Of a DNA stretch of 64,000 nucleotides, positions 1-56,880 are shown in pieces (position 1 is the stretch's first letter; the number at the start of each line of letters is the position of its first letter). A program made the translations under genes and the position numbers. Location of the stretch: NCBI RefSeq assembly GCF_046119375.1, contig NW_027362771.1:256184001-256248000 (forward strand), read 5' to 3'. Origin of the DNA: Phyllobates terribilis (Eukaryota). The notes below the pieces were generated by a model. It did no database searches. It was not told where the DNA came from and saw only the letters and a list, made by a program, of their open reading frames with translations.

Positions 1-1256
1 TTGCACCTCGAACCAGAGGTGTGGTATTCCACTCCCGGGTAAGGATGGAGTGTGGAACGGGGCTCAGTTAGCTGCATGCACCACACTCACCCCATTTCCG
101 GGGGACAGATCAACGGTACTCCCACCAGATAGATGTGCAGGTACGACAGCGTCTGTCCCTGGCTGGAGTGGGGAGGGGGGAGGAACATCCCAGTGGTGTA
201 GGAGCAGAGAGGGGAGGGACTCTGGGCATAGGTAGGAGCCCATTGGGTGCTAGTCACCTGGGCTCGGGTGTCAGAAGGAAGTATAAAAGGTGGGCACCAT
301 GATAGAACAGGGTGCAGTCCCGGTTAGTTCAGTCTGGAGGAGAAGCAGAGGAGCTCAGCCAGAGAGGGCTGACAGGGAGCTGTGGCTCAGTCCAGGCCCA
401 GCTCCAGAGTCAGGCCTGAAGTGGAGGCCTGAGGCAGAGAGAGAGAGAAGGAAGAAGAAGAAGGAACAGAAAGGAACAGGAACACAGGGAAAGGCCCAGA
501 GACGCAAGTGAAGAGGGAACCCTAAGATCCCACGAGATATCGGGTGAAGGGTTGGCAGAGCAGGGTACCGGATCCCAAACTGGTGGAGGCCAATTATCCT
601 TAGCCAGGAACCGGAGGTCGTGGTCAAGTCTTGGCGCGACCCCTCACCATATCCACCAGGAAGGCACGCCATATAGGGTCAGGGAAACCGGAGAGAGAGG
701 TTTCACCAACAAAAGGCCCGAGGAAGCCGGACATAGGTGGGTCCCTGGTGGGGACGGCCAGTAGAGAGGATGAGTAGGGAGCTCTGAACCACGCTCTGGA
801 CTTGCCTGGGAGTTGGCCGAGTCCCGTACCTGGTGGACGCAGCACGGCTTGGGTGGTCACTGCTGGCCGAAGTGACCGGAGCAACAACTGTGAGTAAAGC
901 TTTGGAAACTGCACCACACGTCTCTGTGATTCCTGGCCGCTCCAACACCACTATCATCATTCCCTGCTTCACCAGCTGCCCTGAGGCTATACCCCTCCCG
1001 TTGGGGGTTATACCATCCACGCTGCACAACCGTACCACCGGCCTCAGCGGTCTGCCCTGCAGCGGCGGTTTCATAACCGCATTCAACGGGTGGAGTAGTC
1101 GAACTCTATAACATCTTATTCTAAGTTCTGCCACTTGGTTTGACACCCTGGGCACGGACCGGGTCACCGCCACGAGGACTACTACCCCTATCAGATCCGG
1201 CTCCGGGTATTCCCCACATGCGCAACGCTACACAACATGGTCCAGGGGGTGCGTCA
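1..1256 (+). repeat. 5' LTR (partial) of the CSD-carrying element
   Basis: Matches 3785-5040 with about 17 substitutions counted by eye and no indels. Ends in CA, 4 nt before the PBS. TATAAAA at 282-288 and a variant polyA signal AGTAAA at 893-898. Confidence 0.93.
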
Positions 1257-3144
1257 ACTTTGGCGTAGTCGGCAGGATCTCGTGCCCGCAACCATCGGGT
1301 ACTGCGTGCCTGAAGAAAAATTCACATGTACCTCAAAAAGAAGTCTCCCGCCAATTCCAGAGGATTCCCGCCATCGGACGCCATCTCGGGTCGTTTCCCG
1401 CCGTTTGCCCGCCATCTGCAGCTTTTGCCCGCCATCCGCGGAGTTTCCCGCCATCAGGGGACGACTCCCGCCATCTTGGACGGTTTCCCGCCCTGGCAGA
1501 GCGGACGCCATTGTGGGCGTGCCAGAGGGTGGCAAGAGGCCACCTCCCATCGTGGGCATGGTCCCAGAGTGGCGCCAAAGGAGGAGACCGCCCCCACCAG
1601 CCGAGACTGCAACAATGGAGATGTCCATCAAAGTGGGGGGGCTGCCCCTGAAACTGACTGTCGCTAAGTTGCCCCGGGGCCACTCCCAATGGGGGCGGAT
1701 AGGGAACAAAACTGTGGGGCAGGGCGCGCTCTGGATCAGTCTGGACAGACCGCACCCGGGAATGGAGGAAGCGTCCAGCAGTACCAACACCTTGGTCCGG
1801 AGCCTGCTGCAGGCCGCACCGCCAGACAGCCTAGTGGAGATCCTGGCACAGCTCCCCAGAGATCCGGAGCGTGCACAGGCTGCGCTGGAGGACTTGGACC
1901 GGAGGATGGCCCGGGCACAGCAAGATGCGCTGGCCGAGTGGAGAAGGGAGATGGCCCAGCAGGCTGGAACCCGCCAGCAGGAGGCGCCACCCGCCATGTG
2001 GAGCATGTCTGCCCCTGAGGATGGTGCAGGAGGGACGAAGGCCGGAGACGACGCCGCGGAGGGAGCCGCAAGGATGGAAGCAGGTAATGGGGACGTCATT
2101 ACCCCGAGCCCAGTAGCCGCAAGCCTGCCCCAGCTCCCCGTCGCAGAGCCCGAAGTCCTACTCACCACGCCCGTTGCCGCACCGCCACTGCTCCCAACTA
2201 GGCCTCAAGCGGCAGGAGCCGCGGTCACGCCCCCTTTCATGCCACGCCCCTCGACCCTGAGCGCGGCAAAACAGGAAGTGCCACCGGCCTGGTCGCAAGG
2301 CCTGGTGAACCCGAGCGCCGCTGCCCCTCCAGCGCCCTCTTCCTCAACAGTGCCATTCCTAGACCCAAATAGAATTCCACCGGCCTGGTCGCAAGGCCGA
2401 GTACCCCCGGGCGCCGCTGCCCCCACAGCGCCCTCTGCCTCCACAGTGCCACCCCTGGGCGCAGATCTCTTCGCGCAACATACCAGCCCGGACGGGCTGC
2501 CCTTCGTGTGGCCACCGGAGTACGTCAATCCCCGACTCCGGAAGGAACGACCCCTGTGTGAGCCTCTGATCCCGGCTCCGGCGCCCGCCAAAATCGCTCC
2601 GCTCCCGTTAGAGGACGCCCAATTTGAATGGGATCCGACCGGTGAGAACCTCATGGGGTTCACCCAGGAGACCCGGGCGGACGCAGCCCGGCGTGAGGAG
2701 TGCTGCCATCAACAGCTGGAGGTCTTTGGGAGAGAACGGCGAGAGAGGCGGATCCGCGAGGAACAGCTGCAGGCCCGAAGCGCAGAACAAAAGCGCAGGG
2801 CCCGACAAAACCCCCGTACGGCCTACGGTCCCCGCGCCGACGGGACCGTAATAAAGTTCCAGCTAGAGCATGGCTGGGGCTTTATCCGGGACCACCGAAC
2901 CCCCGGCGACGTCTTTGTTACCCGCAGGGATGTCGAGAGCCACCCACCTGAGGGACACCGTGGACGTGATCTCTACCCGGGTGACGTGGTCACCTTTACC
3001 CGGCACAAGGGTGCCAAGGGACCGTACGCCCTTCACGTACACCGGCTAACCGAGGAGGAGCTGCAGTATGAGGAAAGCCAAGAGGACCCGGACGGGTCTG
3101 AAGACTACCCTCAGGAGGGAGCACAAAGAGGACATAGCTACTGA
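1237..3144 (+). CDS. 635-aa ORF: helical/coiled-coil segments, Pro/Ala-rich linker, C-terminal cold-shock domain and acidic tail; true start may be Met at 1615
   Basis: Uninterrupted ORF. Residues 536-601 (nt 2842-3039) read GTVIKF..HGWGFI..GDVFVT..PGDVVTF..KGPYALHV, matching CSD beta1, RNP1, RNP2 and beta4/5. Confidence 0.8.
   Translation: MVQGVRQLWRSRQDLVPATIGYCVPEEKFTCTSKRSLPPIPEDSRHRTPSRVVSRRLPAICSFCPPSAEFPAIRGRLPPSWTVSRPGRADAIVGVPEGGKRPPPIVGMVPEWRQRRRPPPPAETATMEMSIKVGGLPLKLTVAKLPRGHSQWGRIGNKTVGQGALWISLDRPHPGMEEASSSTNTLVRSLLQAAPPDSLVEILAQLPRDPERAQAALEDLDRRMARAQQDALAEWRREMAQQAGTRQQEAPPAMWSMSAPEDGAGGTKAGDDAAEGAARMEAGNGDVITPSPVAASLPQLPVAEPEVLLTTPVAAPPLLPTRPQAAGAAVTPPFMPRPSTLSAAKQEVPPAWSQGLVNPSAAAPPAPSSSTVPFLDPNRIPPAWSQGRVPPGAAAPTAPSASTVPPLGADLFAQHTSPDGLPFVWPPEYVNPRLRKERPLCEPLIPAPAPAKIAPLPLEDAQFEWDPTGENLMGFTQETRADAARREECCHQQLEVFGRERRERRIREEQLQARSAEQKRRARQNPRTAYGPRADGTVIKFQLEHGWGFIRDHRTPGDVFVTRRDVESHPPEGHRGRDLYPGDVVTFTRHKGAKGPYALHVHRLTEEELQYEESQEDPDGSEDYPQEGAQRGHSY
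1261..1278 (+). promoter_or_regulatory. Primer binding site complementary to the tRNA-Ser 3' end
   Basis: TGGCGTAGTCGGCAGGAT is the reverse complement of ...ATCCTGCCGACTACG-CCA, the 3' end of vertebrate tRNA-Ser(AGA/TGA). Confidence 0.9.
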
Positions 3145-3749
3145 AGGGAAGTAGCGTGAACGAAGGACTGTATATAGTTACCCGTTAGGGTACCCGAGCT
3201 GCTGCTATTGAACTGAGGTCCCCATTGGGACTGTTTTGAAACTGTTGTCTGCTTTGCCCTAATCCCTAACCTGGCTGGGGACTGAGAACAGCCACCCTTT
3301 GTTTTTCCAGGCCGAGGACTGTGAGCGGCCATACCCCTTGTACATAGTTGCGCTTCTTAAAGTGCCCCCTACTGGTTTTATACAAGAACTGCTTTTCTAC
3401 CACGGAATTAGTGACTGTTGCACTTTACCTGGTCACAAGTTGCACCGTGGCCAGAGATCAAGAATATATTTTGAAAATGTTTTATTTGAAAATGTCTTAT
3501 AATGGAAAGTTAAATATGCTGCTAAAATAATAATGCCAAAAGTTTTATATGGTGTTTTGCAAAAAGAGTTCCGGTGGCATTAGAAAAATGTTTATACCAG
3601 TAACGTTTAAAAGGAAAAGAGTACCTCCCATAAAGGGATGGGATAAAAGTTAATGTCTTATATATGAGTGCACTTTAAAAATTGGTATGTTTTAAATTGT
3701 CTTTGCTCTTTTCCAGCCCGAGGACGTGCTGTGATTTACCAGGGGGGAA

Positions 3750-5040
3750 TGTAGCACCCCGAGGACTCGGCTGCTGCAGGAGTATTGCACCTCGAACCAG
3801 AGGTGTGGTATTCCACTCCCGGGTAAGGATGGAGTGTGGAACGGGGCTCAGTTAGCTGCATGCACCACACTCACCCCATTTCCGGGGGACAGATCAACGG
3901 TACTCCCACCAGATAGATGTGCAGGTACGAGAGCGTCTGTCCCTGGCTGGAGTGGGGAGGGGGGAGGAACATCCCAGTGGTGTAGGAGCAGAGAGGGGAG
4001 GGACTCTGGGCATAGGTAGGAGCCCATTGGGTGCTAGTCACCTGGGCTCGGGTGTCAGAAGGGAGTATAAAAGGTGGGCACCATGATAGAACAGGGTGCA
4101 GTCCCGGTTAGTTCAGTCTGGAGGAGAAGCAGAGGAGCTCAGCCAGAGAGGGCTGACAGGGAGCTGTGGCTCAGTCCGGGCCCAGCTCCAGAGCCAGGCC
4201 TGAAGTGGAGCCCTAAGGCAGAGAGAGAGAGAAGGAAGAATAAGAAGGAACAGAAAGGAACAGGAACACAGGGAAAGGCCCAGAGACGCAAGTGAAGAGG
4301 GAACCCTAAGATCCCACGAGATATCGGGTGAAGGGTTGGCAGAGCAGGGTACCGGATCCTAAACTGGTGGAGGCCAATTATCCTTAGCCAGGAACCGGAG
4401 GTCGTGGTCAAGTCTTGGCGCGTCCCCTCACCATATCCACCAGGAAGGCACGCCATATAGGATCAGGGAAACCGGAGAGAGAGGTTTCACCAACAAAAGG
4501 CCCGAGGAAGCCGGACATAGGTGGGTCCCTGGTGGGGACGGCCAGTAGAGAGGATGAGTAGGGAGCTCTGAACCACGCTCTGGACTTGCCTGGGAGTTGG
4601 CCGAGTCCCGTACCTGGTGGACGCAGCACGGCTTGGGTGGTCACTGCTGGCCGAAGTGACCGGAGCAACAACTGTGAGTAAAGCTTTGGAAACTGCACCA
4701 CACGTCTCTGTGATTCCTGGCCGCTCCAACACCACTATCATCATTCCCTGCTTCACCAGCTGCCCTGAGGCTATACCCCTCCCGTTGGGGGTTATACCAT
4801 CCACGCTGCACAACCGTACCACCGGCCTCAGCGGTGTGCCCTGCAGCGGCGGTTTCATAACCGCATTCAACGGGTGGCGTAGTCGAACTCTATAACATCT
4901 TATTCTAAGTTCTGCCACTTGGTTTGACACCCTGGGCACGGACCGGGTCACCGCCACGAGGACTACTACCCCTATCAGATTCGGCTCCGGGTATTCCCCG
5001 CATGCGCAGCGCTACACAACATGGCCCAGGGGGCGCGTCA
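3750..5040 (+). repeat. 3' LTR (1291 bp)
   Basis: Starts TG right after the purine tract AGGGGGGAA, ends CA, followed by unrelated AT-rich flank TTTGTA. Imperfect terminal inverted repeat TG..GCACCCC. Confidence 0.93.
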
Positions 5041-6846
5041 TTTGTATAGGTGGCTTTTATATTTTGTTACTTTTACACACTTAGGATAAATGCACAAATG
5101 TATTTTTCAGGCAGATTCCGATACGGAAACCTATCCTAAGTATATTGCACATAATGTCTTTCAAACTCAAGCGAAGTAGCCGAGTTTTTCAAGCAGAAGA
5201 CTCTTCAGGAAACTCTGGAGTTTTTTTTCCTGAAGCATCATTTTTTGGTTGTTTTCAAATGGTTTTTCCAAAGACTTTGTCCACAAGTGGTTTTTCCATG
5301 GTTTTTATGACATCTTTTTACCGTCATTTTCCAGTCATTTTTTTCACAACATTGAATAATGAAGAAGCTGCTAGCGTTTTTTTAAGAAAAAATGATGGTA
5401 AAATGCTCCTAAAGATGTCTCCGGGCATCTTCCTGGCATCTTTGGAGCTTTTCCATTGGCTTGTATTGTAAACTACAGAGCATCTTCTAAGCGGAAAATG
5501 CCAGAAGAATGGACACTTATTTTACCCGCTTGCCAATTTTAGAAACCTGATGAGATTAAAAGATGTTCAAAAACCTGAACATATACACAGCAAGTTGTTT
5601 TTATATATAAAAAAAAAAAAACACATGTTCATTGTTTTGAGCGCTTTCTAATAGACTTTTCAAGCAGTTTATGCAGTGCAATCCATCTGAAAAAGATGTT
5701 GGGTGCACAGCCCATTAAAAAAAATTTCTACAAAGAGCTTATTTTTTAGAATACATAGCATTTTTTGATCGCTTTCTATACAATTTGTTTCTTAGACTTT
5801 GTTCATGTTGTTTGCAACGTACCATTTTGTTCCAACTCCGTTCCGTCTTGATTTCTATTGTGTTGATGAGAAAAATGTGCTAAATCCTGTACTATTCACC
5901 CCATCAAATGTAATGGGGCTACTGACGGAGACTCCAAACTGAGTGTACAGAGCTTCACCTGTTTTTTTTCCAACAATTCATGTGAGCAGGAAATGACTGT
6001 TTTTGAGGGAGGAAAATAGGTTGTAAATGAATGTTTCCTTTCCTACCAATTTCTCATCTGCCTCAGTACTAATCAATAGGATTCAATAATTAAAGCTTTA
6101 AGGTTGAACCTATAGCCTAACATGATCAATCATATGGGAGAGAGGTTCAGAAATGCAACAGACTGCCCTTTCTAAGGTAATATAAGATTGATGTAAGGTA
6201 TACAAATGCATACCTGCAAAAAGTCCCTGTAATGTTAGGACAGTCCTGTAAACTGGCCCACAGGAGGGTTAGATCATAGTAAAACCACAGTCTCAGAGTA
6301 TGAGCTCACAGAGATTTTTTCAGGTGGAGTCCACCTGGAACTCACGAGAAAAGTGCTCAATAAAATGTTAAAAATATAGAACATAAGCACAAAAATGTCA
6401 AAATGACTTGCTGTTCATAAGATCTTTTTAGCTTATTTTAGCTGCTTCAAACTTCGAAAGCCATGAAGCAGCTAAAAGAAGCAACTTGACCATTCTTCAG
6501 GCGTCTTCTGCTTGGAAGTCGCCAATATTTTATATATAAAATTTAAAACAAATGATGCTGGTGGCAAAAACGTTGCAAAAATGCCAATAAAGACAACAGA
6601 CAAAACGCCGCCGGTGTTTTCCTGAAGTGTCGAAAACTCAGCGGGGACACCAACATCTATAAGATGCCTTTTTTTGCACATGACTGTAAGCATACATTCT
6701 TGGGTGTCATGGGTGTATAGGTCCTGGAAGCAAAGGTTTAAATCCATATAAGAGAAAAGAGTCATTAGAAGGCAACTGTAATGAATGATAAATTAACAAT
6801 ACTGTTAATATAGGTCTATGGAGGACAAATGGGGCATTACCCTTAA

Positions 6847-7932: not shown

Positions 7933-8896
7933 ATGGAAGAGTCCAGGAGCCATTTGGTGAGCTGCATATCCTGCTACATGTTCACAGACTTGCCAGTGGA
8001 AAAGCCAAACTTCACATGCCAGAAATGCAAGCTTGTGTCCCTGTTGAAGGAAAAGTTGCGAAATCTAGAAGAGAGGTTAACTACCTTAAAAATCATTAAG
8101 GAAGGTGAAGAGTTCTTAGACAGAGCAGAATTATCTCTTCATGATTCAGAAAGAGAAGAAAATTCGAACTGCACCTGACGAAACAGAGGAATGGAAGCAT
8201 GTGACCCACAGAAGCAGGAGGATCGAGAGGCAGTCAGCACCCATACTGCTCAGGAACCAGTACCAGGCTCTCACGCAGGAAAACAATGAAGAAATACAGC
8301 AAGATAAGACTTTGCCAGCAATGAATAACCTTGTAAGCCCTCAGAATCCTCCTGGATGGAGAAAGAAGAATGTTGTGAATAAAAAACGGAGAGTGGTGGT
8401 CATGGGGGATTCCCTGTTAAGAGGAACAGAGGCCGCTATCTGCAGACCAGACATAACCTCAAGAGAAATGTGCTGTCTTCCAGGAGCAAAAATTAAAGAT
8501 GTGTCTGACAGGATATCAAGACTCTTCAGACCTACAGATCACTACCCATTCCTGCTAATACATGTGGGGATAAATGACACCGCAAGAAAGGACCTGGAAA
8601 CCATCTGCATTGACTTTGAAGACTTAGGCAAGAAAGTGAAAGAATTGGGAGCGCAGGTAGTCTTCTCATCCATCCTCCCAGTGGATGGCCATGGAACAAT
8701 GAGGTGGAATAAGATTCTACAGGTGAACAACTGGCTACGTCGATGGTGCCGTCAACAAGGATTTGGATTTCTGGATCACGGAATGAATTACCTATACGAT
8801 GGACTACTTGCTAGAGATGGGGTGCACCTTACGAAGACTGGAAAACATGTATTTGGAAGTCGCCTTGCTACACTCATCAGAAGAGCTTTAAACTAG
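7933..8896 (+). pseudogene. CR1 ORF1p (CxxC-CxxC finger, leucine zipper, SGNH/GDSL esterase) split by one frameshift near 8150-8170
   Basis: ORF 7933-8178 has CISC...CQKC plus a heptad Leu region. Overlapping ORF 8141-8896 has GDSL, GIND and DGVH esterase blocks. Confidence 0.85.
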
Positions 8897-9018
8897 AACA
8901 ATGTGGGAAGGGAAGCAAAAGGCCAGAAAAAGCCATACAGCTGACAAATACTATTGAGATCTCTGCTACTGGAAGTGGAAAAGAAGAACAAAGACAAAAC
9001 AATTTAAATAATAAAAAT

Positions 9019-11808
9019 ATGGGAGGAAGAGAAACCAATCACAAACTAAAATGTTTTTATACAAATGCACAAAGCATGGGCAACAAACAAGGAGAATTGG
9101 AACTACTAATGCAGGAAAAGGAATATGATGTCATTGGAATCACTAAAACTTGGTGGGACGATACACATGATTGGAATAAAAGGCTAAAAGGATACAACTT
9201 ATTTGCAAGAAACAGACTTGATAAACGAGGAGGAGGTGTTGCATTGTATGTTAGAAAAACGTATATCTGCACAGAGATTGAAGCTTCAGAGACTGGGAGT
9301 TCTGTGGAAACTGTTTGGGTAAGAATACAAGGAGAGAACAACGGAAAGGACACCATTGTAGGCATTTACTACAGGCCACCTGGGCAAGCTGAAGATATGG
9401 ATGAACTCTTTATGAATCAAATGACCAAGTTCTCCAAAAAATATGACGTAGTGGTCATGGGAGATTTCAACTATCCAGACATTTGTTGGGAATCTCTCTC
9501 AAGTAAAACTAACAGGTCAAGCAAATTCTTATCCTCTCTTGCTGACAACTTTATCTTCCAAAAGGTAGGGGAGAAAACAAGGGGATCTGCTACTTTGGAT
9601 CTAATCCTTATAAACAGGGAGGAAATGGTTGAGGAGGTAAAGGTGGCTGGGACCCTAGGAGGCAGCGATCATGCTATTATAGAATTTTGGATAACTAGAG
9701 GAGGAAGACATGTGAAGACTCAAACTTCAAGGTTAGATTTTAGAAAGGCAGATTTTAAGAGACTCAGAAAGAGAATAGGAGGGATCCAATGGCTGGATGT
9801 CCTTAAGGACAAAAATGTCCAGGAAGGATGGGAAATTTTTAAAAATGAGATTCTCAAAGCACAATGGTTAACAATCCCGAAAAGTAGGAAGAATGGGAAG
9901 CATTTAAGGAAACCAGGATGGATGAACACAGAACTTAAACACATGCTAAAAAGAAAGAAAGAAATGTTTATTAAATGGAAAGAGGGAGGCATATCTAAAG
10001 AAGATTATAATGCAGTCTGCAGATCCTGCAGGGCACGTATCAGGTTAGCTAAAGCTGACAATGAATTAAGGCTTGCAAGAGATGTCAAAAGTAATAAAAA
10101 AGGATTTTGGGGGTATGTCAAAAATAAAAGAAAAGTCAAAGATGCTATAGGATTTTTACAGGATGAAAATGGAGAAATGGTAAGAGAGGATGTTGAGAAG
10201 GCCGAACTTTTTAATTCCTATTTTGCATCTGTTTTCTCTCAGAAAGAAAATGTAACATCAACTGATCTTCACTGTCCTTTTAAAGGAATAGAGGAATCCA
10301 ACTTATCTGTAAACAGAAAGATTGTGAGGGAATATTTAGCTAACATAAATGAGTTCAAGTCTCCAGGTCCAGATGAATTACACCCCAGAGTACTGAAGGA
10401 GATCGTAGAAGAAATTTTAGAACCACTCTCCATAATCTTTGAAAATTCTTGGAGAACAGGAGAAGTCCCAGAAGACTGGAGAAGAGCAAATGTTGTTCCT
10501 ATCTTCAAAAAGGGGAAGAAGGTGGACCCAGGGAACTATAGGCCAGTGAGTCTGACTTCTATACCAGAAAAGATCTTTGAACAAATTATTAAACAACATG
10601 TATGTAAGTACATGGATAAGAATGAAGTGATTAACCAGAGTCAGCATGGGTTTGTAACTAACAAGTCATGTCAGACTAACTTAATTTCCTTCTATGACAG
10701 AATCACTGACTGGGTGGATCAGGGAAATGCTGTAGATATAGTATATCTTGACTTCAGCAAAGCATTTGACAAAGTATCTCACACCATCCTTATTGAAAAA
10801 ATGACCAAGTATGCAATGGACCAGGCAACTGTTAGGTGGATTCATAACTGGCTTAGTGATTGGACTCAAAGGGTGGTGGTAAATGGCTTCACATCCAGCT
10901 GGATGAATGTCTCAAGTGGGGTACCACAGGGCTCCGTCCTGGGACCTGTATTGTTCAACATCTTTATCAATGATTTAGATGAAGGAATTGAGGGTAAACT
11001 GATTAAATTTGCTGATGACACAAAGCTAGGAGGGATAGCTAATACTAGAGAAGAGAGAGAGAGGATTCAAAAAGACCTAAATAAACTGGAGCAGTGGGCA
11101 GCAACCAACAGAATGGTTTTTAACAGGGAAAAATGCAAAGTACTACATCTGGGCAATAAAAATGAAAAAAGCATATACAGAATGGGAGGAATAGAGCTAA
11201 GCAACAGTACATGTGAAAAAGACTTAGGTATACTAATAGATCATAGACTGAACATGAGTCAACAGTGTGATGCAGCAGCAAAAAAGGCAAATACAATTCT
11301 GGGATGTATTAACAGAAGCATACAGTCTAGATCACGTGAAGTCATTATCGGTCTTTACTCCTCTTTGGTCAGACCTCATCTGGAATACTGTGTACAGTTT
11401 TGGGCACCACATTTTAAAAAAGACATAGACAAACTGGAGCAAGTTCAGAGAAGAGCGACCAGAATGGTGACTGGTCTGCAAACCATGTCCTATGAGGAAC
11501 GGTTGCAGGATTTGGGAATGTTTAGCTTGCAAAAAAGAAGACTGAGAGGAGACTTAATAGCTGTCTACAAATATGTCAAGGGCTGTCACATTGTAGAAGG
11601 ATCATCTTTATTCTCATTTGCACAAGGAAAGACTAGAAGCAATGGGATGAAACTAAATGGGAGGAGACACAGATTAGATATTAGAAAAAACTTTTTGACA
11701 GTTAGGGTGATTAATGAGTGGAACAGGCTGCCACGAGAGGTGGTGAGTTCCCCTTCAATGGACGTCTTCAAACAGAGGCTGGACAGACATCTGTCTGAGA
11801 TGATCTAG
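9019..11808 (+). CDS. CR1 ORF2p, apurinic-like endonuclease plus reverse transcriptase (929 aa)
   Basis: FYTNAQS, GIYYRPP, MGDFNYP and SDH endonuclease motifs. [23 protein letters not shown] and FADD RT motifs. Confidence 0.95.
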   Translation: MGGRETNHKLKCFYTNAQSMGNKQGELELLMQEKEYDVIGITKTWWDDTHDWNKRLKGYNLFARNRLDKRGGGVALYVRKTYICTEIEASETGSSVETVWVRIQGENNGKDTIVGIYYRPPGQAEDMDELFMNQMTKFSKKYDVVVMGDFNYPDICWESLSSKTNRSSKFLSSLADNFIFQKVGEKTRGSATLDLILINREEMVEEVKVAGTLGGSDHAIIEFWITRGGRHVKTQTSRLDFRKADFKRLRKRIGGIQWLDVLKDKNVQEGWEIFKNEILKAQWLTIPKSRKNGKHLRKPGWMNTELKHMLKRKKEMFIKWKEGGISKEDYNAVCRSCRARIRLAKADNELRLARDVKSNKKGFWGYVKNKRKVKDAIGFLQDENGEMVREDVEKAELFNSYFASVFSQKENVTSTDLHCPFKGIEESNLSVNRKIVREYLANINEFKSPGPDELHPRVLKEIVEEILEPLSIIFENSWRTGEVPEDWRRANVVPIFKKGKKVDPGNYRPVSLTSIPEKIFEQIIKQHVCKYMDKNEVINQSQHGFVTNKSCQTNLISFYDRITDWVDQGNAVDIVYLDFSKAFDKVSHTILIEKMTKYAMDQATVRWIHNWLSDWTQRVVVNGFTSSWMNVSSGVPQGSVLGPVLFNIFINDLDEGIEGKLIKFADDTKLGGIANTREERERIQKDLNKLEQWAATNRMVFNREKCKVLHLGNKNEKSIYRMGGIELSNSTCEKDLGILIDHRLNMSQQCDAAAKKANTILGCINRSIQSRSREVIIGLYSSLVRPHLEYCVQFWAPHFKKDIDKLEQVQRRATRMVTGLQTMSYEERLQDLGMFSLQKRRLRGDLIAVYKYVKGCHIVEGSSLFSFAQGKTRSNGMKLNGRRHRLDIRKNFLTVRVINEWNRLPREVVSSPSMDVFKQRLDRHLSEMI

Positions 11809-19744: not shown

Positions 19745-22371
19745 TATTATTATTTATTATAGCGCCATTTATTCCATGACGCTTTACATGTGAAAGGGAT
19801 ATACATAGCACAATTACAATAAATTTTGAACAATACAAGCCGGCGACTGGTACATAAGGAGCGTCGACCCTGCCTGCAAGGGCTCACAATCTACAGGGGA
19901 TGGGTGAGGATACAGTAGGTGAGGATAGAGTTGGACGTGCAGCTGTATGGTGGAGAAAGGGTTACTGTAGGTTGTAGGCTTGTCAGAAGAGGTGGGTCTT
20001 CAGGTTCCTTTTGACAGTTTCCATGGTAGGTGACAGTCTGATGTGTTGGGGTAGAGAGTTCCAGAGTAGGCGGGATGCATGGGAGATATCTTGTATATGA
20101 TTGTGGGAAGAGAAGATAAGAGGGGAATAGAGAAGGAGATCTTGTGAGGATCGGAGGTTGCGTGTAGATAAGTATCGGGAGATTAAGTCACAGATATATG
20201 GAGGAGACAGGTTATGGATGGCTTTATATGCCATGGTTAGGGTGTTAAACTGGAGTTTCTGGGGAGCCAGTGAAGGGATTGACAGAGAGGAGAGGCTGGG
20301 GAATAGCTGAGGGGGGACAGGTGGATTAGTCGGGCAGCAGAGTTTATGATAGATTGGAGGGGTGCGAGAGTGTTAGAGGGGAGGCTACAGAGCAGGAGGT
20401 TGTAGTAGTCGAGGCGTGCACTTGTAATGTAGGTGCTGGAATGCAACACACAGAGACACAAGGCGAGGACAGTCAGAGATGAATATATACAGTTTATATA
20501 TAGATATAACAGGTATTCTGAACAAGGGAATGGCAACAGGGATAATTAACGGTAATTTCAAATATTAATAAAATGCGAAGTCTCTTAAGGTAGTGCGGTA
20601 CACCCAATCATGGGAGTCACCACGTCAGTTCTTTAACTCTGTATATGGCCCTAGCGGGGGTCACCGGCTATTCCCGCTAGGCCGAAAGTCTTTTCCGGAC
20701 AAAGTCAATTAAATCATGTTTAGCTTCTCCCGCCCCAACCGTTCCCCTCCCAACCTGAGTACCTAAACCCAACTGGCCCCGGTACCGTGAGTGAACAGTA
20801 GAAGTGACGGCCCTGTTCACGTATGCAGCTCCTCTACTTTCACTGGCGTGACTTTCCTGGCACAGCCGTCTCCCAACTCCTCTCTTCCTGGCCGTTGGAG
20901 GCAGTCTCTCAAGCCGTGGATAGGGGGTCCAGACCTCGTCTGTCGGCGGGCGACGTCGGATTCCACGAACTCACTCAGCACTGCAAGCAGGTTCCGACTC
21001 TCCTCAGTAGGCACAGCACTCGGGGCACACCTGTGAGGGATCCGGAGCTCATCCACCGGTGTCTGTCCGGCTGGGGCACCTCGCAGGCCTCTGGCTTAGG
21101 CCTGCCTCGCGGAGAGTCTCAGCACGTAGGGAGCACGTCTGCTCCTCTCTGCTGCTTGGCGCCAAAAACACTTCAAGCTTGGGGCGCTGGCCTCTTATAC
21201 CCAGGAACTACTTCCTGGAAGTCACCTGACATGCACATCCTGGTTCTGCTTGACTGTGTCTGACCAGCAGATGGCAATCTCTCTCCATCTTTGAAGCATC
21301 CTGTAAGAATTCTGTTAAAGGCTCTCTTGCCTCTACTACACACTAGTGTTTTTGCAGATTCGTGGTTGAGGAATGTGCGGTTCCAGAAGATATTTTTGAG
21401 TTGGAGTCGGCAGGAAGTGGAAAGGGCTTGGATATGTGGTTTGAAGGAGAGATTAAAGTCCAGGGTTACCCTGAGGCAGCGAGCTTGTGGCACTGGGGAG
21501 AGTGGGCAGCCATTGACTTTGATGGATAGGTCAGTTGGGGGGGGTTGAGTGATATGGTGGAAAGATGATGAATTCAGTTATATCCATGTTAAGTTTTAGA
21601 AATCTGTCAGAGAAGAAGGATGAAATAGCAGACTGACATTGTGGGATTCTGGTTAGTAGGGAGGAGATATCGGGTCCAGAGAGGTAGATCTGTGTGTCAT
21701 CAGCATAGAGGTGATACTGAAAGCCTTGGGACTCTATGAGCTGTCCCAGGCCGAAGGTGTAGATGAAGAAGACCAGGGATCCTAGGACTGAACCTTGGGG
21801 GACACCGACAGATAGGGGGCGTGATGAGGTGGTGGTGTGTGAGTGGGAGACACTGAATGTCCTGTGTGTTAAATATGAGGAGATCCAAGATAGAGCCAAG
21901 TCTTTGATGCCAAGAGATGAGAGAATCTGTAGTAAGAGGGAATGTTCCACTGTGTCAAAGGCAGATGACAGGTCCACAAGGAGGAGGACAGAGTAGTGTT
22001 CGCTTGGATTTGGCACTTAGTAGGTCGTTGGTGACTTTAGTCCGGGCAGTTTCAGTGGAGTGGTGCGGTCGGAAGCCAGATTGTAAGGGGTCAAAGAGGG
22101 AGCAGGAGGACAGGTGGGAGGACAGTTCAGAATGGACGTGTTGTTTCAGTAGTTTTGAGGCATAAGGGAGAAGTGATAAGGGGCGATAGCTAGACAGAGA
22201 GGATGGGTCAAGGGATGGCTTTTTGAGGATGGGTGTGATCAAGGCATGTTTGAAGCATGAGGGGAAGACACCACTTGTTAGTGACAGGTCGAAAAGGTGG
22301 GTTAGGGTTGGGATGAAGACTGTGGTGAGGTTAGGGATGAGGTGGGACGGGATTGGGTCAAGTTTGCAGGT
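19745..22371 (-). mobile_element. 5'-truncated L2 LINE (degenerate RT), interrupted by a solo LTR
   Basis: Minus-strand fragments [50 protein letters not shown]; (ATT)n tail. Confidence 0.88.
20423..21340 (-). mobile_element. Solo LTR (918 bp) with 4-bp TSD CACT
   Basis: TGTA...TACA termini. CACT at 20419-20422 and 21341-21344. L2 sequence resumes on both sides. TATA-like TATAAGAGG on the minus strand near 21198 (strand call is tentative). Confidence 0.8.
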
Positions 22372-44270: not shown

Positions 44271-45960
44271 TAACCCCTGGCAAAAATTATGGAATCACTG
44301 GGCTCGGAGGATGTTTATTCATTTGTTTAATGTTGAAAAAAAGCAGATCACAGACATGGCACAAAACTAAAGTCATTTCAAATGGCAACTTTAGGGCTTT
44401 AAGAAACACTAAAAGAAATCAAGATAAAAAATGTGGTACTCAGTAAGGGTAATTTTTTCAGACCAAGCAGAGGGAAAAAATTATGGAATCACTCAATTCT
44501 GAGGAAAAAATTATGGAATCATGAAAAACAAACACACAAAAGAACACTCCAATACATCAGTAGTATTTTGTCGCACCACCTCTGGCTTTAATAACAGCTT
44601 GCAGTCTCTGAGGCATGGACTTAATGAGTGACAAACAGTACTCTTCATCAATCTGGCTCCAACTTTCTCTGATTGCTGTTGCCAGATCAGCTTTGCAGGT
44701 TGGAGCCTTGTCATGGTCCATTTTCTTCAACTTCCACCAAAGATTTTCAATTGGATTGAGATCCGGACTATTTGCAGGCCATGACATTGACCTTATGTGT
44801 CTTCTTTCAAGGAATGTTTTCACAGATTTTGCTCTATGGCAGGATGCATTATCATCTTGAAAAATGATGTCATCATCCCCAAACATCCTTTCAATTGATG
44901 GGATGAGAAAACTGTCCAAAATATCAATGTAAACTTGGGCATTTATTGAAGATGTAATGACAGCCATCTCCCCAGTGCCTTTACCTGACATGCAGCCCCA
45001 TATCATCAATGACTGTGGAAATTTGCATGTTCTCTTCATGCAGTCATCTTTATAAATCTCATTGGAACGGCACCAAACAAAAGTTCCAGCATCATCACCT
45101 TGCCCAATGCAGATTCGCGATTCATCACTGAATATGACTTTCATCCAGTCATCCACAGTCCACAATTGCTTTTCCTTAGCCCATTGTAACCTTGTTTTTT
45201 TCTGTTTAGGTGTTAATGATGGCTTATGTTTAGCTTTTCTGTATGTAAATCCCATTTCCTTTAGGCGGTTTCTTACAGTTCGGTCACAGACATTGACTCC
45301 AGGTTCCTCACATTCGTTCCTCATTTGTTTTGTTGTGCATTTCCTGTTTTGGAGACATATTGCTTTAAGTTTCCGGTCTTGACGCTTTGATGTCTTCCTT
45401 GGTCTACCAGTATGTTTGCCTTTAACAACCTTCCCATGTTGTTTGTATTTGGTTCAGATTTTAGACACAGCTGACTGTGAACAATCAACATCTTTTGCAA
45501 CATTGCGTGATGATTTACCTTCTTTTAAGGGTTTGATAATCCTCTCCTTTGTTTCAATTGACATCTCTCGTGTTGGAGCGATGATTCATGTCAGTCCACT
45601 TGGTGCAACAGCTCTCCAAGGTATGATCATTCCTTTTTAGATGCAGACTAACGAGCAGATCTAATTTGATGCAGGTGTTAGTTTTGGAAATGAAAATTTA
45701 CAGGGTAATTCCATAATTTTTTCCTCAGAATTGAGTGATTCCATAATTTATTCCCTCTGCTTGGTCTGAAAAAAATGACCCTTACTGAGTACCACATTTT
45801 TAATCTTGATTTCTTTTAGTGTTTCTTAAAGCCCTAAAGTTGCCATTTGAAATGACTTTAGTTTTGTGCCATGTCTGTGATCTGCTTTTTTTCAACAACA
45901 TTAAACAGCTGAATGAACATCCTCTGAGCCCGGTGATTCCATAATTTTTGCCAGGGGTTG
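44271..45960 (-). mobile_element. Full-length Tc1 DD34E transposon with ~250-bp IR/DR TIRs
   Basis: TA TSD. TIR (C/T)AACCCCTGGCAAAAATTATGGAATCAC. Confidence 0.92.
44557..45564 (-). pseudogene. Tc1 transposase (DD34E) with an in-frame TGA at 45454-45456
   Basis: IFSDESR, FQDDNA-34 aa-IENL. The upstream HTH region is in frame with ORF 44557-45324 apart from one stop. Confidence 0.88.
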
Positions 45961-50474: not shown

Positions 50475-53400
50475 CTAGTCTGTATAGTCTGCATTTGGGG
50501 TGGAAAAGTCCTTGGAGATCCATGACTTGTTCATCTTGATGAAAGTTAGGTGGTTTACACTTTCAGCGGACAGCTGGCTGCGCTTATCCGTCAGGACACT
50601 ACCAGCAGCGCTGAAGACGCGTTTTGAGAAAACGCTGGCTGCCGGGCATGATAAAACCTCCAAGGCGTGACAGGTGAGCTCAGGTCATTAATCCATTTTT
50701 GAAGACCAAAATGTAAAAGGGTCCAAATCCTCCCTGATGGTATTTATATTGAGCTCTAGATACTTCTGCACCATCCTCTCCAGTCGTTCACCACGTGTCA
50801 GACTTGTACTCTGTTGTGCAGGTGCACGAGCTGTTGTAAAAAATGTGTGAAAGCGCTCACAGAAATTGCTTCTGCCACTTACGCTGCTGCTACTGCTAAT
50901 GTTTTGGCGTTGATGAATTGACGTGCCGGAGGTTGAAAGTCTACAGTTGTTATGCACACTGTGTGCCTCACTGCTAACTTGGGGAAAACCTCTCTTAAGG
51001 TTGCTTAAAAGCTTGTTTCGATACTCCAGCATTAGCAGGTCCCTTTCCAGGGTGGGAAGCATCTGGCAAAATTTACTCTTACAATGTGGCAACCCAGTGG
51101 TCAACATTATTTCGAATCATAACTATACCGGGATCATGTTGTAGAGAATGCATCAAGGAGTCACTCATATGTTGGGCACATCCAGGAGGTCCAAGGCCAT
51201 GCTGTATTGATGGCTGGTTAACACTGATGCTTGTTTCCTCCGTCCCCTCCCGCCAACCACAAACAACAGAGAGGGAATGATTATCCTCTTCATCTTCTGA
51301 CTGTTGCTCGCCCATCACCTCTTCCTCCTCCATTTGTTCCTCGGCTCTTGCACAGTTTGTCTGGTATCACCAACCCCCCCTGGATCGCAGTAATCCACCC
51401 TCACTTGGCATCCGCCTGTGTGACGACAGTCTGGAACTTTGAGACATTGTTATCCCTTCCGAATCCTCCTCTTCTTCTGGAACCACCACTTCCTGCCGCA
51501 GGCTATTCAAAGTCTGCTCCAGCATGTAGATGACCGGAACAGTGATGCTGATGACGGCATCGTCAGCGCCAGCCATTTTAGTAGCCATTTCAAAACTGTG
51601 CAGAAGGGTGCGGAGGTCCTTAATCTGTGCCCACTCCGTAAAAGTGATATGCCACACATCCGTATTGCGTTGGCCCAGGCTATACGACGTGACATACTGC
51701 ATCAGGGCTCGTTGCTGCTGCCACAGTCGCTGCAACATGTGCAGAGTGGAATTCCACCTTGTCAGCACATTGCATATCGATTTATTAACTGGCATTGACA
51801 AAGATCTATGTATCGATTCAAGTCAATGACCTGAGGGGTGCGAATGGCAGAAGTGAGCACACAGCTTCCGTGCTTTCTGAAGCATCTCATCCAGGCCAGG
51901 ATAGTGGCGGAGAAATCGCTGTACCACCAGGTTGAGGACGTGAGCCATGCAAGGCACGTGTGTGAGCTTGCCTCAGAGTAGGGCCGCCACCAGGTTCGCA
52001 CCGTTATCGCAAACGGCCTTCCCTGGTTCCAGGTTCAGCAGAGAAAGCCATTGCTCAAACTCGGACTGGAGAGCTGTCCACAACTCTTCAGCTGTATGAC
52101 TGCGATCTCCAAGGTATATTAATTTTAACACCGCCTGATTGCGGTGACCCATGGCTGGGCAGTACGGAGGTGGTGTGGATTTGTTCTGCATTGTTGGATC
52201 GCATGTCTCATTAAGGCTAAGGCCCCACTCTCAGTATTTGGTCAGTATTCGGTCAGTAATTTTTCTCAGGAGTGGGAGCCAAAACCAAGAGTGGGTGATA
52301 AATGCAGAATTGTTGCATTATTTCTATTATACCTTTTCTCTGATTGTTCCTCACCTGGTTTTGGCTCCCACTCCTGGGAAAAAATACTGACCGAATACTG
52401 ACCAAATACTGATAATGGGGCCATGGCCTAAGGCAGAGGTTGAGTGCCAGGTGGAGGCCCTAGAGGAGGTGAAGGAGGCAGAAGCAGTGGAGGAAGTGTG
52501 AAATACAGAGGTTTCTTCTGCAAGACCCTTCCCCGTCTGCCCCCACAGCCACCAGAGTAACCCAGTTACCAGTCAGCGAGATGTTAGACCCTTGGTCATG
52601 CTTAACTCGTCCAGGTGTCTGTGGTGAAATACACCCTGGCAGACATAGATTTAGTCAAGGTATGGGTGATGTTGTCTGCGACATGTTGGTGTAGCGCAGG
52701 CACAGCTTTCTTAGAGAAGTAATGGCGACTGAGCAACTGGTACTGGGGGACTGTGTCGGCCATCAGCTTTCGGAAACCGTCTATATATCAGGCAAAAAGG
52801 CAGCATTTCCGTGGCCAACATATTGGAGATGGTGGTTCAACCTCTTAGCTTTCTCATGTGTAGGATGAAACAATCTTTTATTTGACCACAACTGCGAGAC
52901 CGAGGGCTGGTTGCAGTGTTGAGAGAGGGCGGAGTAAGGTGAACCGGACAAACTGCTGGACCGTGAGTGAGGTGCAGGCGGAGATGTTACGGTGGATGTG
53001 GTTGATGGGGCAGCTGATGGTTGTTGAGGCCAGCTGGTCCGCATTTTATCTCAGTGAGATTGCCAGAGTAACACATGTTGATTGCGCATGTGAAGGTTCA
53101 TGCATGTATTAGTCAAATTACTGCACTTTTTCCCTCTACTGAGTTTTTTCTTGAAAAGTTTGCAGGTCACGTGAGTTGGCTCATCCTTTGCGGTGTCAAA
53201 AAAGGTCCAGGCTAGGCAACCCTTGCTGCCCCATAGTTGTGGCTAAGGATGCAGTGCTCCTCATGCTTGCATCACTCCGTGTCTGCGCTGTAGGGCGAAA
53301 TGTAACCTCCTCGTCTTCCTCCCCCACCTCTTCAGATGAGCTGTTCGGCTCTGTGACTCTGGGTTCACACCAAGTAGGATCTTCAACCTCGTCATCATCC

Positions 53401-53964: not shown

Positions 53965-56880
53965 TTTTCTTATTTATTTATATAGTTCCAGTGATTCCAT
54001 GGAGCTGTACATACTTAGGTGTTACATGCCAAATACAGAGATCACTTACTGTAAACAAAACTAACAATGATAGACTGGTACAGAGGGAAGAGGACCCTGC
54101 CCTTGCGGGCTTACATTCTACAGGAATGGGGAGGAGATAGTAGGTTGGGGGGGTTGCAGTAGCTCTGGTGTTGTTGAGGTGGCAGCAAGCAAGGTCATGG
54201 CAGGCTGTAAGCTTGTTTGAAAAGATGGGTTTTCAGGTTCCATCTGAAGGATCCAAATGTGGCGGATAATCGGACGTGTTGAGGCACAGAATTCCATAGA
54301 ATGGGGGATATTCGGGAGAAATCGTGGAGGCGATTGTGTGAGGAACGAATAAGTGTGGAGGAGAGAAGGAGGTCGTGGGAGGACCAGCTATTACATAAAG
54401 GAATATATCGGGAGATTAGTTCAGAGTTGTACAGAGGAAAAAGGTTATGGATGGCTTTGTAGGTCAGTGTTAGTAGTTTGAACTGGATACGCTGGGCAAT
54501 TGGGAGCCAGTGAAGGGATTTGCAAAGGTGGGTAGCAAAAGAGTAGCGAGGCGAGAGATGAACTAGTCGTGTAGTAGAGTTGAGGATGGACTGGAGGGGT
54601 GCGAGAGTGTTAGCAGGTAGGCCACAGAGGAGGATGTTGCAGTAGTCAAGGCGGGTGATGATGAGGGCATACACAAGAAGTTTAGTAGATTGAGGGTTGA
54701 GGAAAGGACGGATTCTGGAAATATTTTTGAGCTGCAGGCGACAGGAGGTGGCAAGAGCTTGGATGTGGGGTTTGAAGGACAGGGCAGAGTCAATAGTTAC
54801 TCCAAGGCAGCGGATTGCGGGTACAGGGGAAAGTGTGATTTCATTTATTGTGATAGAAAGATCAGGTGGGGAAGGTATGCGAGATGGGGGAAAAATGATG
54901 AGTTCAGTTTCGTCCACATTGAGCTTAAGGAAGCGAGAGGAGAAGAAGGAGGATATGGCTGATAGACATGCCGGAATTCTGGATAGCAGAGAGGTGACAT
55001 CAGGGCCAGAGAGGCAGATCTGGGTGTCATCAGCGTACAGGTGGTACTGGAAGCCATGGGATTTTATGCGCTGTCCCAGGCCAAGGGTATAGATTGAGAA
55101 GAGTAGGGGTCCTAGGATGGAGCCTTGAGGGACTCCAACAGAGAGGGGGCAGGATGAGGAGGTAGTGTGGGAGAGGGAGACGCTTAATGTACAGTTAGAA
55201 AAGTATGAGGAGATCCAAGATAGGGCAAGGTTTTTGACGCCAAAGGAAGAGAGGATCTGTAGTAGGAGGCAGTGGTCAACTCTGTTGAAGGCAGAGGAAA
55301 GGTCAAGGAGAAGGAGTACAGAGAATTGTCTGTTAGCTTTGGCTGTGAGTAAGTCATTAGTAATTTTGGTAAGGGCAGATTCGGTGGAATGGTGGGGGCG
55401 GAAGCCAGATTGTCAGTTGTCGAAGAGAGAGTTAGATGAGAAGTGAGAGGAAAGTTCAGCGTGAACATGTTGCTCAAGGAGTTTGGAGGCAAATGGGAGC
55501 AGCGATATGGGGCGGTAGCTGGACAAGGCAGTTGGGTCGAGGGATGGCTTTTTGAGGATGGTCGTAATTGTGGCATGTTTGAAGGCAGCGGGGAAGGTAC
55601 CAGAAGTTAGTGATAGGTTGAAGAGATGGGTTAGGGATGGGATGTGTGTGGGGGTGAGGTTGGAGAGAAGGTAGGATGGGATGGGGTCGAGTGCACAGGT
55701 GGTGAGGTGTGATTTGGAAAGGAGACGAGTAAGGTCTCCTTCAGTGATGTTGGAAAGGGAGATTATTGGGGAAGGGCAATGGTGTGGAAGACAAAGGGGT
55801 TGTGGTGGTTGGACAGTAAAGACTTGCCTTGTTTGGTCAATCTTGTTTTTGAAGTGTGTGGCAAACTCCTCAGCAGAGTATCACGAAGGTGTGGGAAAGA
55901 CTTAGTGCAACACAGAGGGAAGAGGGAAAGGGAGCCCAGACACTTGGGAAAGGGGGGAGTGGAGACATCCTAGACTGGTCTAGTGTCACCCTGTCTCAAC
56001 TACCGTCCCTATATTGGCTCTTCACCAATCGCCACACACGTGTCTTGCCCTGACTTTCCCTGGCGTATGGATAAGGCTAGGGATTAAAGGAGATGAGCAC
56101 TAGTCGATCTCCACTAAACTCTATAGACAACAAGGGTAGACAAACAGGGGGAATTGCTTAGCTTTAGACGACTCCAAACAAATGCGGACACGGCCTCAAG
56201 CTCCAGAGAGGACGAAGTACTGCTCTTGCTAAAGCCTCACAAGTAGTAATGAATATCGCCGGCACCTCCCTCTCAGACATACCAGATATTTATACACCCA
56301 GGCCAGGGAGCTAATTAGCCAGCGGGAGGTAGCCTCTGGGTCCTAGAGACAGCCAACCCCTAAGAAGATGTCTGTAATGCCAAACGTAGAGATCTCCTGC
56401 AACGAACTGCAGGGAGACTGTCTTTCACCTTTGACACACCTGTGACACAGAGATTACGGAGGTCAGAGGGGGTAGTGGAGGGCAGAGGAGAGAGTTAAAA
56501 GTGTTGAATAATTGTTTCGGGTTGGAAAATATGAGGGATGTGAAGTAGGCCTGTTTAACAGAGGTGTGGGCTGACTTGAATGCGAGTGTTGCTTGTTTGA
56601 ATGCAGTGAAGTCATCTTGCGAGTGTGTTTTCTTTCAACGCCGCTCTGCAACCCTGGACACTTGCCAAAGCTGTTCAGTGAGGTTGTTGTGCCAGGGTTG
56701 CCTATTGACTCGTCGCACTCTGCCATGCACAAGAGGGGCGACCGAGTCAATAGCTGATGCGAGAGTGGCATTGTAGAAAGCAGTGGCGCTGTCTGTGTAG
56801 TGGAGTGAAGATATGGATGTCAGTGGTAGTGAGGAGAGGGTTGCATTGACAATCCAACACAATGGGCAGCACTTTGAACA
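53965..56880 (-). mobile_element. 5'-truncated L2 LINE interrupted by a solo LTR
   Basis: ORF 54195-54917 is the L2 ORF2 C-terminus (RLDYCN, LHWLP, WNS). RT blocks [10 protein letters not shown] and YADDTQIY lie upstream; (AAT)n tail. Confidence 0.9.
55879..56447 (-). mobile_element. Solo LTR (569 bp) of a Ty3/Gypsy family with 5-bp TSD CAGAG
   Basis: TGTCACA start on the minus strand. CAGAG at 55874-55878 and 56448-56452. Homologous to 61075-63243. Confidence 0.88.

Follow-up and report, generated by a model that had tools for sequence, protein, structure and literature searches.

The window analyzed here is a stretch of 64,000 nucleotides from the poison frog Phyllobates terribilis (assembly GCF_046119375.1, contig NW_027362771.1, positions 256,184,001 to 256,248,000 of the forward strand). 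Its left end is occupied by a long terminal repeat (LTR) retrotransposon of 5,075 bp (1,291 + 2,493 + 1,291 bp for LTR, interior and LTR), the sole long open reading frame (ORF) of which encodes a protein with a cold-shock domain (CSD). That this element represents a real family, a protein-coding satellite of a Ty3/Gypsy family (hereinafter, the satellite and the helper), is well supported. The 5' LTR starts 35 bases outside the window and the target duplication TTTG is present on either side of the element, so that the 5,075-bp insertion is complete. The LTRs align without gaps and with 17 mismatches (1,239 of 1,256 bases identical, 98.65%). Read as its reverse complement, the primer-binding site (PBS, 1261-1278) reproduces without mismatch the 3'-terminal 15 bases of a tRNA-Ser(AGA) gene from the same genome, followed by CCA (a first tRNA pattern returned copies of the primer site at the 6 loci inspected, and the real gene came from a later pattern), and the polypurine tract (PPT) adjoins the TG of the 3' LTR. 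The set of features expected of an LTR retrotransposon, namely TG...CA LTRs, target duplication, PBS and PPT, is thus complete.

A preliminary description of the window, made from its letters, had reported LTRs about 98.6% identical, an 18/18 tRNA-Ser PBS, a PPT abutting TG and a 2.5-kb interior devoid of gag CCHC and pol, all of which is borne out. The motif scan detects no CCHC, YxDD or D[ST]G motif in the 635-residue product, and in the Pfam scan of the element the CSD is the sole family, with no protease (PR), reverse transcriptase (RT), RNase H (RH) or integrase (IN); the gag and PR-RT-RH-IN genes of an autonomous Ty3/Gypsy element are missing. The same description had the 635-codon ORF ending in the CSD; the frame (open from 1144 to 3144, with 635 codons counted from the ATG at 1237) and the domain stand, but the domain is followed by a helix and an acidic tail of 29 residues. 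The parts of the element are as follows.

1-1256 (+): 5' LTR, TG...CA, first 35 bases outside the window (full length 1,291), TTTG duplication
282-287 (+): TATAAA box, likely the LTR promoter
890-898 (+): candidate variant poly(A) signal AGTAAA in GTGAGTAAA, the exact motif being present in 16 of the 36 satellites sampled as described below
975-1256 (+): LTR end, probably U5, about 280 bases, 70-85% alike to the helper LTR end
1237-3144 (+): single ORF of 635 codons, with a putative start at an ATG 24 bases 5' of the PBS
1261-1278 (+): PBS, 18/18 to tRNA-Ser(AGA) plus CCA, inside the ORF and translated as WRSRQD
1279-1495 (+): leader with CCCGCCAT repeats, homologous to the helper leader, candidate packaging signal
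1789-1980 (+): predicted helices with a coiled-coil-like pattern, residues 185-248
1987-2451 (+): Pro/Ala-rich, predicted disordered, length-variable part, residues 251-405
2674-2808 (+): long charged helix, residues 480-524, predicted local distance difference test (pLDDT) score mostly 80-92
2839-3042 (+): CSD, residues 535-602, with GWGFI and DVFVTRR motifs
3145-3740 (+): AT-rich non-coding stretch, with insertions and deletions free of frame constraint
3741-3749 (+): PPT AGGGGGGAA, identical to the helper PPT
3750-5040 (+): 3' LTR, TTTG directly after

The Pro/Ala-rich part contains a 90-base duplication (2281-2370 and 2377-2466). The LTR of the element contains no AATAAA or ATTAAA, and AGTAAA may be a variant poly(A) signal of the kind known from retroviral LTRs. 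Rfam has no match in the window, the folding of the U5/PBS/leader RNA is no better than that of shuffled sequence (z 0.93), and no clean splice joint is seen in four contig sets, of guessed-RNA or unknown type (possibly DNA), that span the element.

The CSD assignment, for which the preliminary description had proposed a profile check, is real. The domain scores 31.9 bits against the PF00313 cut-off of 27 and is modeled as a five-stranded oligonucleotide/oligosaccharide-binding fold that matches CspA with a TM-score of 0.90 by target length (root mean square deviation of 1.4 A), with YBX1 and YBX2 matched as well. With the family profile, eight YBX1/YBX2 chains rank first (E values of 2e-12 to 4e-12), followed by CspA (1.5e-10); bacterial Csp leads instead in single-sequence and fold searches, and therefore capture of the domain from a host Y-box gene, as the profile ranking suggests, is likely only. 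W547, F549 and F560 are kept in 39-40 of 40 copies, and R563 and R564 are nearly invariant too. The protein atlas holds no usable match to the ORF product. Outside the CSD, the structure model is confident only for the helices of residues 185-248, the helix of residues 480-524 and a short helix after the CSD, with pLDDT below 50 for 440 of the 635 residues.

Such a model could miss a fold, and the ORF might then be an extremely diverged Gag in which the zinc knuckle was replaced by the CSD, so that the element would build its own particle and borrow Pol only. The Gag-like place after the PBS, the order of a helical part followed by an RNA-binding part, and the gag-only precedents (Bik-1/2, ENS-1, 1a11, TR-GAG) fit this idea, which is nonetheless highly improbable: the profile-profile comparison with the helper Gag gives a match probability of 0.22%, the Pfam scan detects no gag family in 31 of 31 family members, and order is confined to the CSD, one long helix and three helices that range from short to long, with cold-shock domains, and no capsid, among the listed fold matches of the model. 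The same comparison rules out that the ORF is the gag of the helper, an outcome on which the preliminary description would have fallen. The single ORF is accordingly not recognizable as the Gag of a gag-only element, an assignment to be read with the low confidence of the model over 440 of 635 residues in mind. A role in replacing nucleocapsid, also raised in that description, is weakened because the helper Gag carries its own CCHC knuckle.

The satellite is a large family. A 601-base internal query produced 7,201 first-look candidates, of which 40 were scored and 18 loci were taken from these 40. Sixteen of the 18 have two whole LTRs that are 99.0-99.7% alike around interiors of 2.3-2.7 kb, with target duplications of 4 bp in 15 and 5 bp in one; the remaining two are a copy with a cut 3' LTR and a three-LTR tandem. 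Genome-wide, there are 24,467 exact satellite-type PPT/LTR junctions and 69,769 exact PBS matches (controls, 0 for both), where exact junction counts miss mutated junctions and count tandem arrays more than once. A narrow CSD-codon pattern (1,051 sites) fits few subfamilies and was not used as a copy count. The element is therefore not the lone deletion derivative that the copy-number check proposed earlier might have revealed. Derivation from the helper by a single deletion is rejected as well, given that beyond the leader only traces of about 50-130 bases near the 3' end match the helper.

Some copies form tandem arrays of the type LTR-interior-LTR-interior-LTR, as in L045-L046 (C9:202.77 Mb), where one target duplication surrounds three LTRs, and several further neighbors at a spacing of 3.1-3.8 kb belong to this type too. 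Older relatives of the family (L216-L221) have CSD frames of 438-539 codons and, where LTR pairs were found, these are 86-97% alike.

The composition of the families was assessed on the first 100 exact PBS sites of contig C1, a non-random sample from one chromosome end. These comprise 36 satellites, 60 gag/pol-starting sites (55 of the helper family, one distant Gypsy element and four helper/satellite chimeras) and four others. The CSD is present in 32 of the 36 satellites, and in 21 the frame is unbroken from the PBS through the CSD; since the breakpoints of the four CSD-less copies all differ, no CSD-less subfamily is apparent among the 36.

The helper is represented by 39,809 exact helper-type PPT/LTR junctions genome-wide (controls, 0), that is, 1.6 helpers to one satellite by this count. 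It is about 8 kb long, with LTRs of about 1 kb, and encodes a PNMA-like Gag with a CCHC knuckle, followed by PR-RT-RH-IN (two copies scanned). In the Gmr1-like clade, the integrase comes before RT, whereas the helper integrase lies 3' of RNase H. The gag and pol frames are unbroken in nine of the 60 gag/pol-starting copies, and no helper-family copy sampled on C1 has a CSD match. The sequences that the satellite and the helper have in common are the PBS, the PPT, some 200 bases of leader and the final ~280 bases of the LTR (70-85% alike), beyond which the LTRs do not align. Target duplications are also 4 bp long in both (26 of 27 satellites and 38 of 41 helper-class copies among those that could be scored), and their base preferences are similar, as expected of one integrase. 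The satellite is thus an amplified family with an autonomous partner that has the same cis signals, i.e. a non-autonomous family, and the longer, pol-carrying, tRNA-Ser-primed partner that the preliminary description had postulated, and suggested searching for through the LTR and PBS, has been found, which supports mobilization in trans.

The satellite LTR pairs are younger, with ends at least 99% alike in 27 of 32 sampled satellites compared with 25 of 50 helpers. Together with the leader common to both families and the analogy with phage-inducible chromosomal islands drawn from passages of PMC6431247, this could be read as interference, whereby the protein would bind the common leader of the helper RNA or the assembling particle and shift packaging to the shorter satellite RNA. 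The excess of helpers, many of them young, and the poor fit of an effect in trans with the selection in cis described below make such interference unlikely.

The satellite and helper modules are mosaic. In a phylogeny of the 320-base segment that surrounds the PBS, built from 99 loci and the window without L162, satellites and helpers intermingle. Well-supported branches force at least six changes, and a single satellite clade is rejected (p-AU, from the approximately unbiased test, 2.4e-6, after removal of ten long-branch, chimeric or unclassed rows), although recombination within this segment sits uneasily with a tree model. The leader of L174 is 94% like that of a helper and 73% like that of the nearest satellite; that of L166 is 96% helper-like, and both elements have satellite LTRs and their own target duplications. 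The U5 regions of L098 and L133 are 96% and 95% helper-like, respectively. Judging by these sequence comparisons, U5/leader modules have been swapped repeatedly between the two families. Mosaics of this kind are classically attributed to template switching within shared particles. The relation between satellite and helper is very probable, and mobilization by the helper enzymes can be inferred from the shared ends, target duplications and mosaics.

Several short elements (L095, L120, L157, L166, L174) are chimeras that join a helper leader or gag start to satellite 3' parts. At three loci (L183, L184, L227), the primer site is extended by more tRNA-Ser sequence, which in L183 reaches the anticodon loop, as though the primer itself had been reverse-transcribed in part. 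Matches resembling tRNA-Ser cluster at C13:48.4-49.0 Mb, within a 1.78-kb tandem repeat, and at C3:7.0-9.3 Mb, where three loci were confirmed as tRNA-Ser(AGA).

The ORF runs through the PBS. The ATG at 1237 is a putative start because its position is within the 5' LTR and the first ~100 residues translate the LTR end, the PBS and the leader. Of the 36 satellites, 24 have an in-frame ATG no more than 45 bases 5' of the PBS, as opposed to none of the 60 helper-class copies, and the frame is kept across the leader in 32 of 34 scorable satellites; in helpers, the distances from PBS to gag are spread 15/15/10 over the three frames. These ATG and leader-frame counts make translation through the PBS likely in most copies.

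The ratio of nonsynonymous to synonymous substitution rates (dN/dS), recommended as a check in the preliminary description, is far below 1, which indicates purifying selection. The 40 copies used (the window, 21 sampled copies and 18 of 29 close matches) were chosen for unbroken frames, and their pairs are non-independent. For pairs more than 8% apart, dN/dS is 0.09-0.10 in the CSD, 0.08-0.13 in residues 471-530, which include the long helix, 0.21-0.24 in residues 406-470, ~0.3 in residues 186-250, 0.58 in the Pro-rich part and 0.60-0.82 in the first 100 residues, the leader part. CSD variants found in at least two copies include 18 nonsynonymous and 82 synonymous changes (dN/dS 0.07), compared with 25 and 12 among singletons (dN/dS 0.71), and therefore selection acts on transposing lineages rather than on each insertion. 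Among 45 copies, all 18 shared length variants of the ORF preserve the frame; the corresponding figures are five of 18 for the 3' stretch and 12 of 46 for the LTR (a pairwise count of insertions and deletions against the window copy, in 28 of 32 copies, proved too noisy where copies were distant and gave way to the block method). An open frame kept merely for escape from RNA decay would account for the length variants and leave the constraint on amino acids unexplained. The protein is very probably functional and selected at the level of the element.

Conservation by the frog itself, through co-option or addiction as proposed for the zebrafish Bik-1 Gag (in the relevant part of PMC12067270), is a further reading; relatives of the protein persist across poison frogs and Bufo, with some gene models joining the CSD to host genes. 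The near neutrality of CSD singletons, which mostly arose after insertion, implies that the host does not preserve ordinary insertions, and this is the least probable of the explanations considered.

Thousands of intact copies could supply the protein in trans, yet inherited variants are purified, and therefore the protein is best explained as favoring its own RNA. In the scheme that follows, the satellite would be transcribed from the 5' LTR, presumably in germ-line cells, and the ORF would be translated through the PBS. The CSD protein, with the domain as its predicted means of binding, stabilizing and unfolding RNA, would bind mainly the RNA that encoded it (cis preference) and help that RNA survive and enter helper particles; candidate steps are stabilization of the RNA or its storage in a Y-box-like particle, opening of the folded PBS and leader for tRNA annealing, and hand-over to Gag. 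Satellite RNA would be co-packaged with helper RNA, giving rise to the mosaics, and tRNA-Ser would prime the satellite RNA, which helper enzymes would reverse-transcribe and integrate. Host YB-1 is reported, in the accessible text of PMC6040738, to stabilize retroviral RNA and to support the production of murine leukemia virus, mouse mammary tumor virus and human immunodeficiency virus. The role of chaperone or packaging aid for its own RNA appears reasonably probable, and so, on balance, does the reading as a whole, a pol-less and gag-less satellite copied by the helper, with a CSD protein that acts mainly on its own RNA.

A protein of this kind could instead blunt germ-line silencing, by affecting piRNA loading or host Y-box masking, and so free both satellite and helper RNAs. 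The Y-box-like nature of the CSD, the recent expansion of both families and the high level of Gypsy RNA reported in poison-frog ova (in the pertinent part of PMC6278860) would suit such counter-defence. A diffusible suppressor made by thousands of copies, however, would let broken copies ride free, whereas inherited variants are strongly purified and the 36 sampled satellites include no CSD-less subfamily; counter-defence is doubtful, if the least unlikely of the alternatives.

A search with a distant CSD uncovered a second young pol-less family, with a different LTR of ~1.03 kb and an interior of 2.6 kb (L209-L213, L215 and L222-L226, e.g. L210:2849-7517; L235-L264). It has the same tRNA-Ser PBS in the same reading frame (WRSRQD), frames of up to 819 codons that start inside the LTR, and 567 exact LTR/PBS junctions; no gag or pol is present in 30 of 30 sampled sites. 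The CSD, 36% identical, is the only match between its protein and that of the window. With a CSD dN/dS of 0.13 (eight of 30 copies unbroken over 600 codons), the second family keeps its CSD independently.

The public protein nearest to that of the window carries the label Phyllobates terribilis, and annotated relatives occur in Ranitomeya, Anomaloglossus and Bufo bufo. The homologue matches listed, from a capped set of candidates, include none from Xenopus, ranids, salamanders or fish, a weak negative given that frames of transposable elements often go unannotated. Several frog gene models (P0025, P0034, P0017, P0030, P0028, P0029, P0032) join the CSD to unrelated genes, namely R3HCC1, an astacin UVS.2-like gene, a serine protease and other transposon genes, which reflects either exon capture or an annotation artefact. 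The single best match to the P0017 CSD is L185/L214, where no LTR pair was found.

Several observations weigh against the proposed action on the protein's own RNA or against its generality. None of 30 sites (30 of 30) of the second family has a helper that shares its LTR end. Copies that are CSD-less or chimeric and have near-identical LTR pairs do occur, and therefore the CSD may not be strictly needed in cis. The positions of the YBX1 beta-1 Trp and RNP2 His, which presumably stack on RNA, are Lys540 and Thr562 in the satellite CSD, so that RNA binding may be weaker or different. Constraint on the leader part is weak, an in-frame ATG precedes the PBS in only 24 of the 36 satellites, and the public gene model of a relative (P0002) starts at the equivalent of residue 226. 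The mosaics could stem from DNA-level conversion instead of co-packaging. To these can be added the confinement of the PBS sample to one chromosome end and the choice of non-independent, unbroken copies for dN/dS. A broader generalization is tentative, and somewhat short of probable: a frog class of at least two families without gag and pol that captured a Y-box CSD and have a gene read through the PBS, the product of which would be a cis-acting adaptor that loads its own RNA into Ty3/Gypsy particles, with U5/leader refreshed by recombination, a counterpart of phage satellites making up ~1% of a 10.6-Gb genome.

Elsewhere in the window, a CR1-like long interspersed nuclear element (LINE; 8120-11808, +) has, as read from translation, an esterase-like ORF1 and a 997-codon endonuclease-RT frame. 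What we take, from translations, to be two Tc1-like transposase frames, L2-like RT fragments and a hAT-like fragment lie, jointly, at

44557-45453 (-)
61602-62672 (+)
21531-22016 (-)
54195-55880 (-)
51367-51822 (-)

Several inverted pairs of 24-32 bases right of the satellite element (5187-5606 and 6395-6570) suggest that an inverted-repeat element, now decayed, lay where the satellite inserted.

A non-autonomous LTR element would be expected either to lose its genes or to retain gag alone. Here, the sole gene retained encodes a host-type RNA-binding domain, at a dN/dS near 0.1, across two families and tens of thousands of copies, which points to an unrecognized step at which a parasite of retrotransposons can gain an edge. 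The satellite also bears on genome gigantism in poison frogs: ~24,000 copies of 5 kb amount to ~120 Mb, ~1% of the 10.57-Gb assembly, before solo LTRs are counted, and this DNA would be invisible to Pol-based counts. The family probably explains gene models named 'Y-box-binding protein 2-A-like' and the CSD exons fused to unrelated genes. It further provides a natural system for the suggestion, made in the relevant passages of PMC12287698, that retroelements capture cold-shock domains adaptively.

No description of a pol-less, gag-less CSD element was found in full-text searches of the literature, with Repbase and Dfam outside the search, and supplements (table S6 on bird endogenous retroviruses (ERVs), frog repeat libraries) could bear on this. 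The available text of four surveys of frog transposable elements (PMC6278860, bioRxiv 10.1101/2023.11.06.565769, PMC12822217, PMC4131045) contains no match to 'cold' beyond one reference. The belief of the preliminary description that the architecture is undescribed holds for the combination only, CSD capture having been published for bird ERVs (in the relevant text of PMC12287698). Each ingredient has a precedent, whereas the combination, scale and selection appear undescribed.

The satellite can be compared with several known systems. Y-box proteins (YBX1/YBX2, frog FRGY2) and bacterial CspA have the same fold as the satellite CSD, which is likewise preceded by an Ala/Pro-rich stretch, as in Y-box proteins, but is only ~33% identical to them, has the YBX1 Trp and His replaced and an Arg-Arg pair added, and comes with a long helix directly upstream and no Y-box tail repeats. 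The LINE-1 ORF1p, which we take to be a cis-preferring RNA chaperone composed of a helical or coiled segment and a domain that binds single-stranded nucleic acid, is analogous; no homology was found, and it has an RNA recognition motif and belongs to another element class. Large retrotransposon derivatives (LARDs) have an internal region without conserved coding capacity, whereas the satellite ORF is under constraint. Terminal-repeat retrotransposons in miniature (TRIMs) are short elements with terminal repeats of a few hundred bases, far shorter than the 1.2-1.3 kb LTRs of the satellite family (1,291 bp in the 5,075-bp window element). LARDs and TRIMs are usually described as non-coding, as opposed to the 600-700-codon frame under selection in the satellite family, and elements such as LARDs, with cis signals only, are mobilized in trans (according to passages of PMC6431247). 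Closer are the gag-only or pol-less elements Bik-1/Bik-2 (BHIKHARI) of zebrafish and ENS-1/ERNI of chicken (PMC12067270), 1a11 and xretpos of Xenopus (PMC4585706), and the plant TR-GAG (PMC8704663), which, in the relevant portions of these sources, are likewise young and multicopy, with two LTRs, one long conserved ORF, no pol and a presumed partner. Their ORF is Gag or Gag-like (as stated for Bik, ERNI, 1a11 and TR-GAG) and they number tens to hundreds of copies, whereas the satellite ORF has a CSD and no detectable Gag homology, with ~24,000 copies and an identified helper. Among bird ERVs, the pertinent text of PMC12287698 reports 46 with PF00313, through several independent captures with a suggested adaptive value. 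These are LTR retroelements with a captured domain too, but they are retroviruses by RT in which the CSD is an extra domain; in the frog satellite, unlike in the bird ERVs, the CSD protein is the sole gene, there is no RT, propagation probably depends on a Ty3/Gypsy family and purifying selection has been measured.

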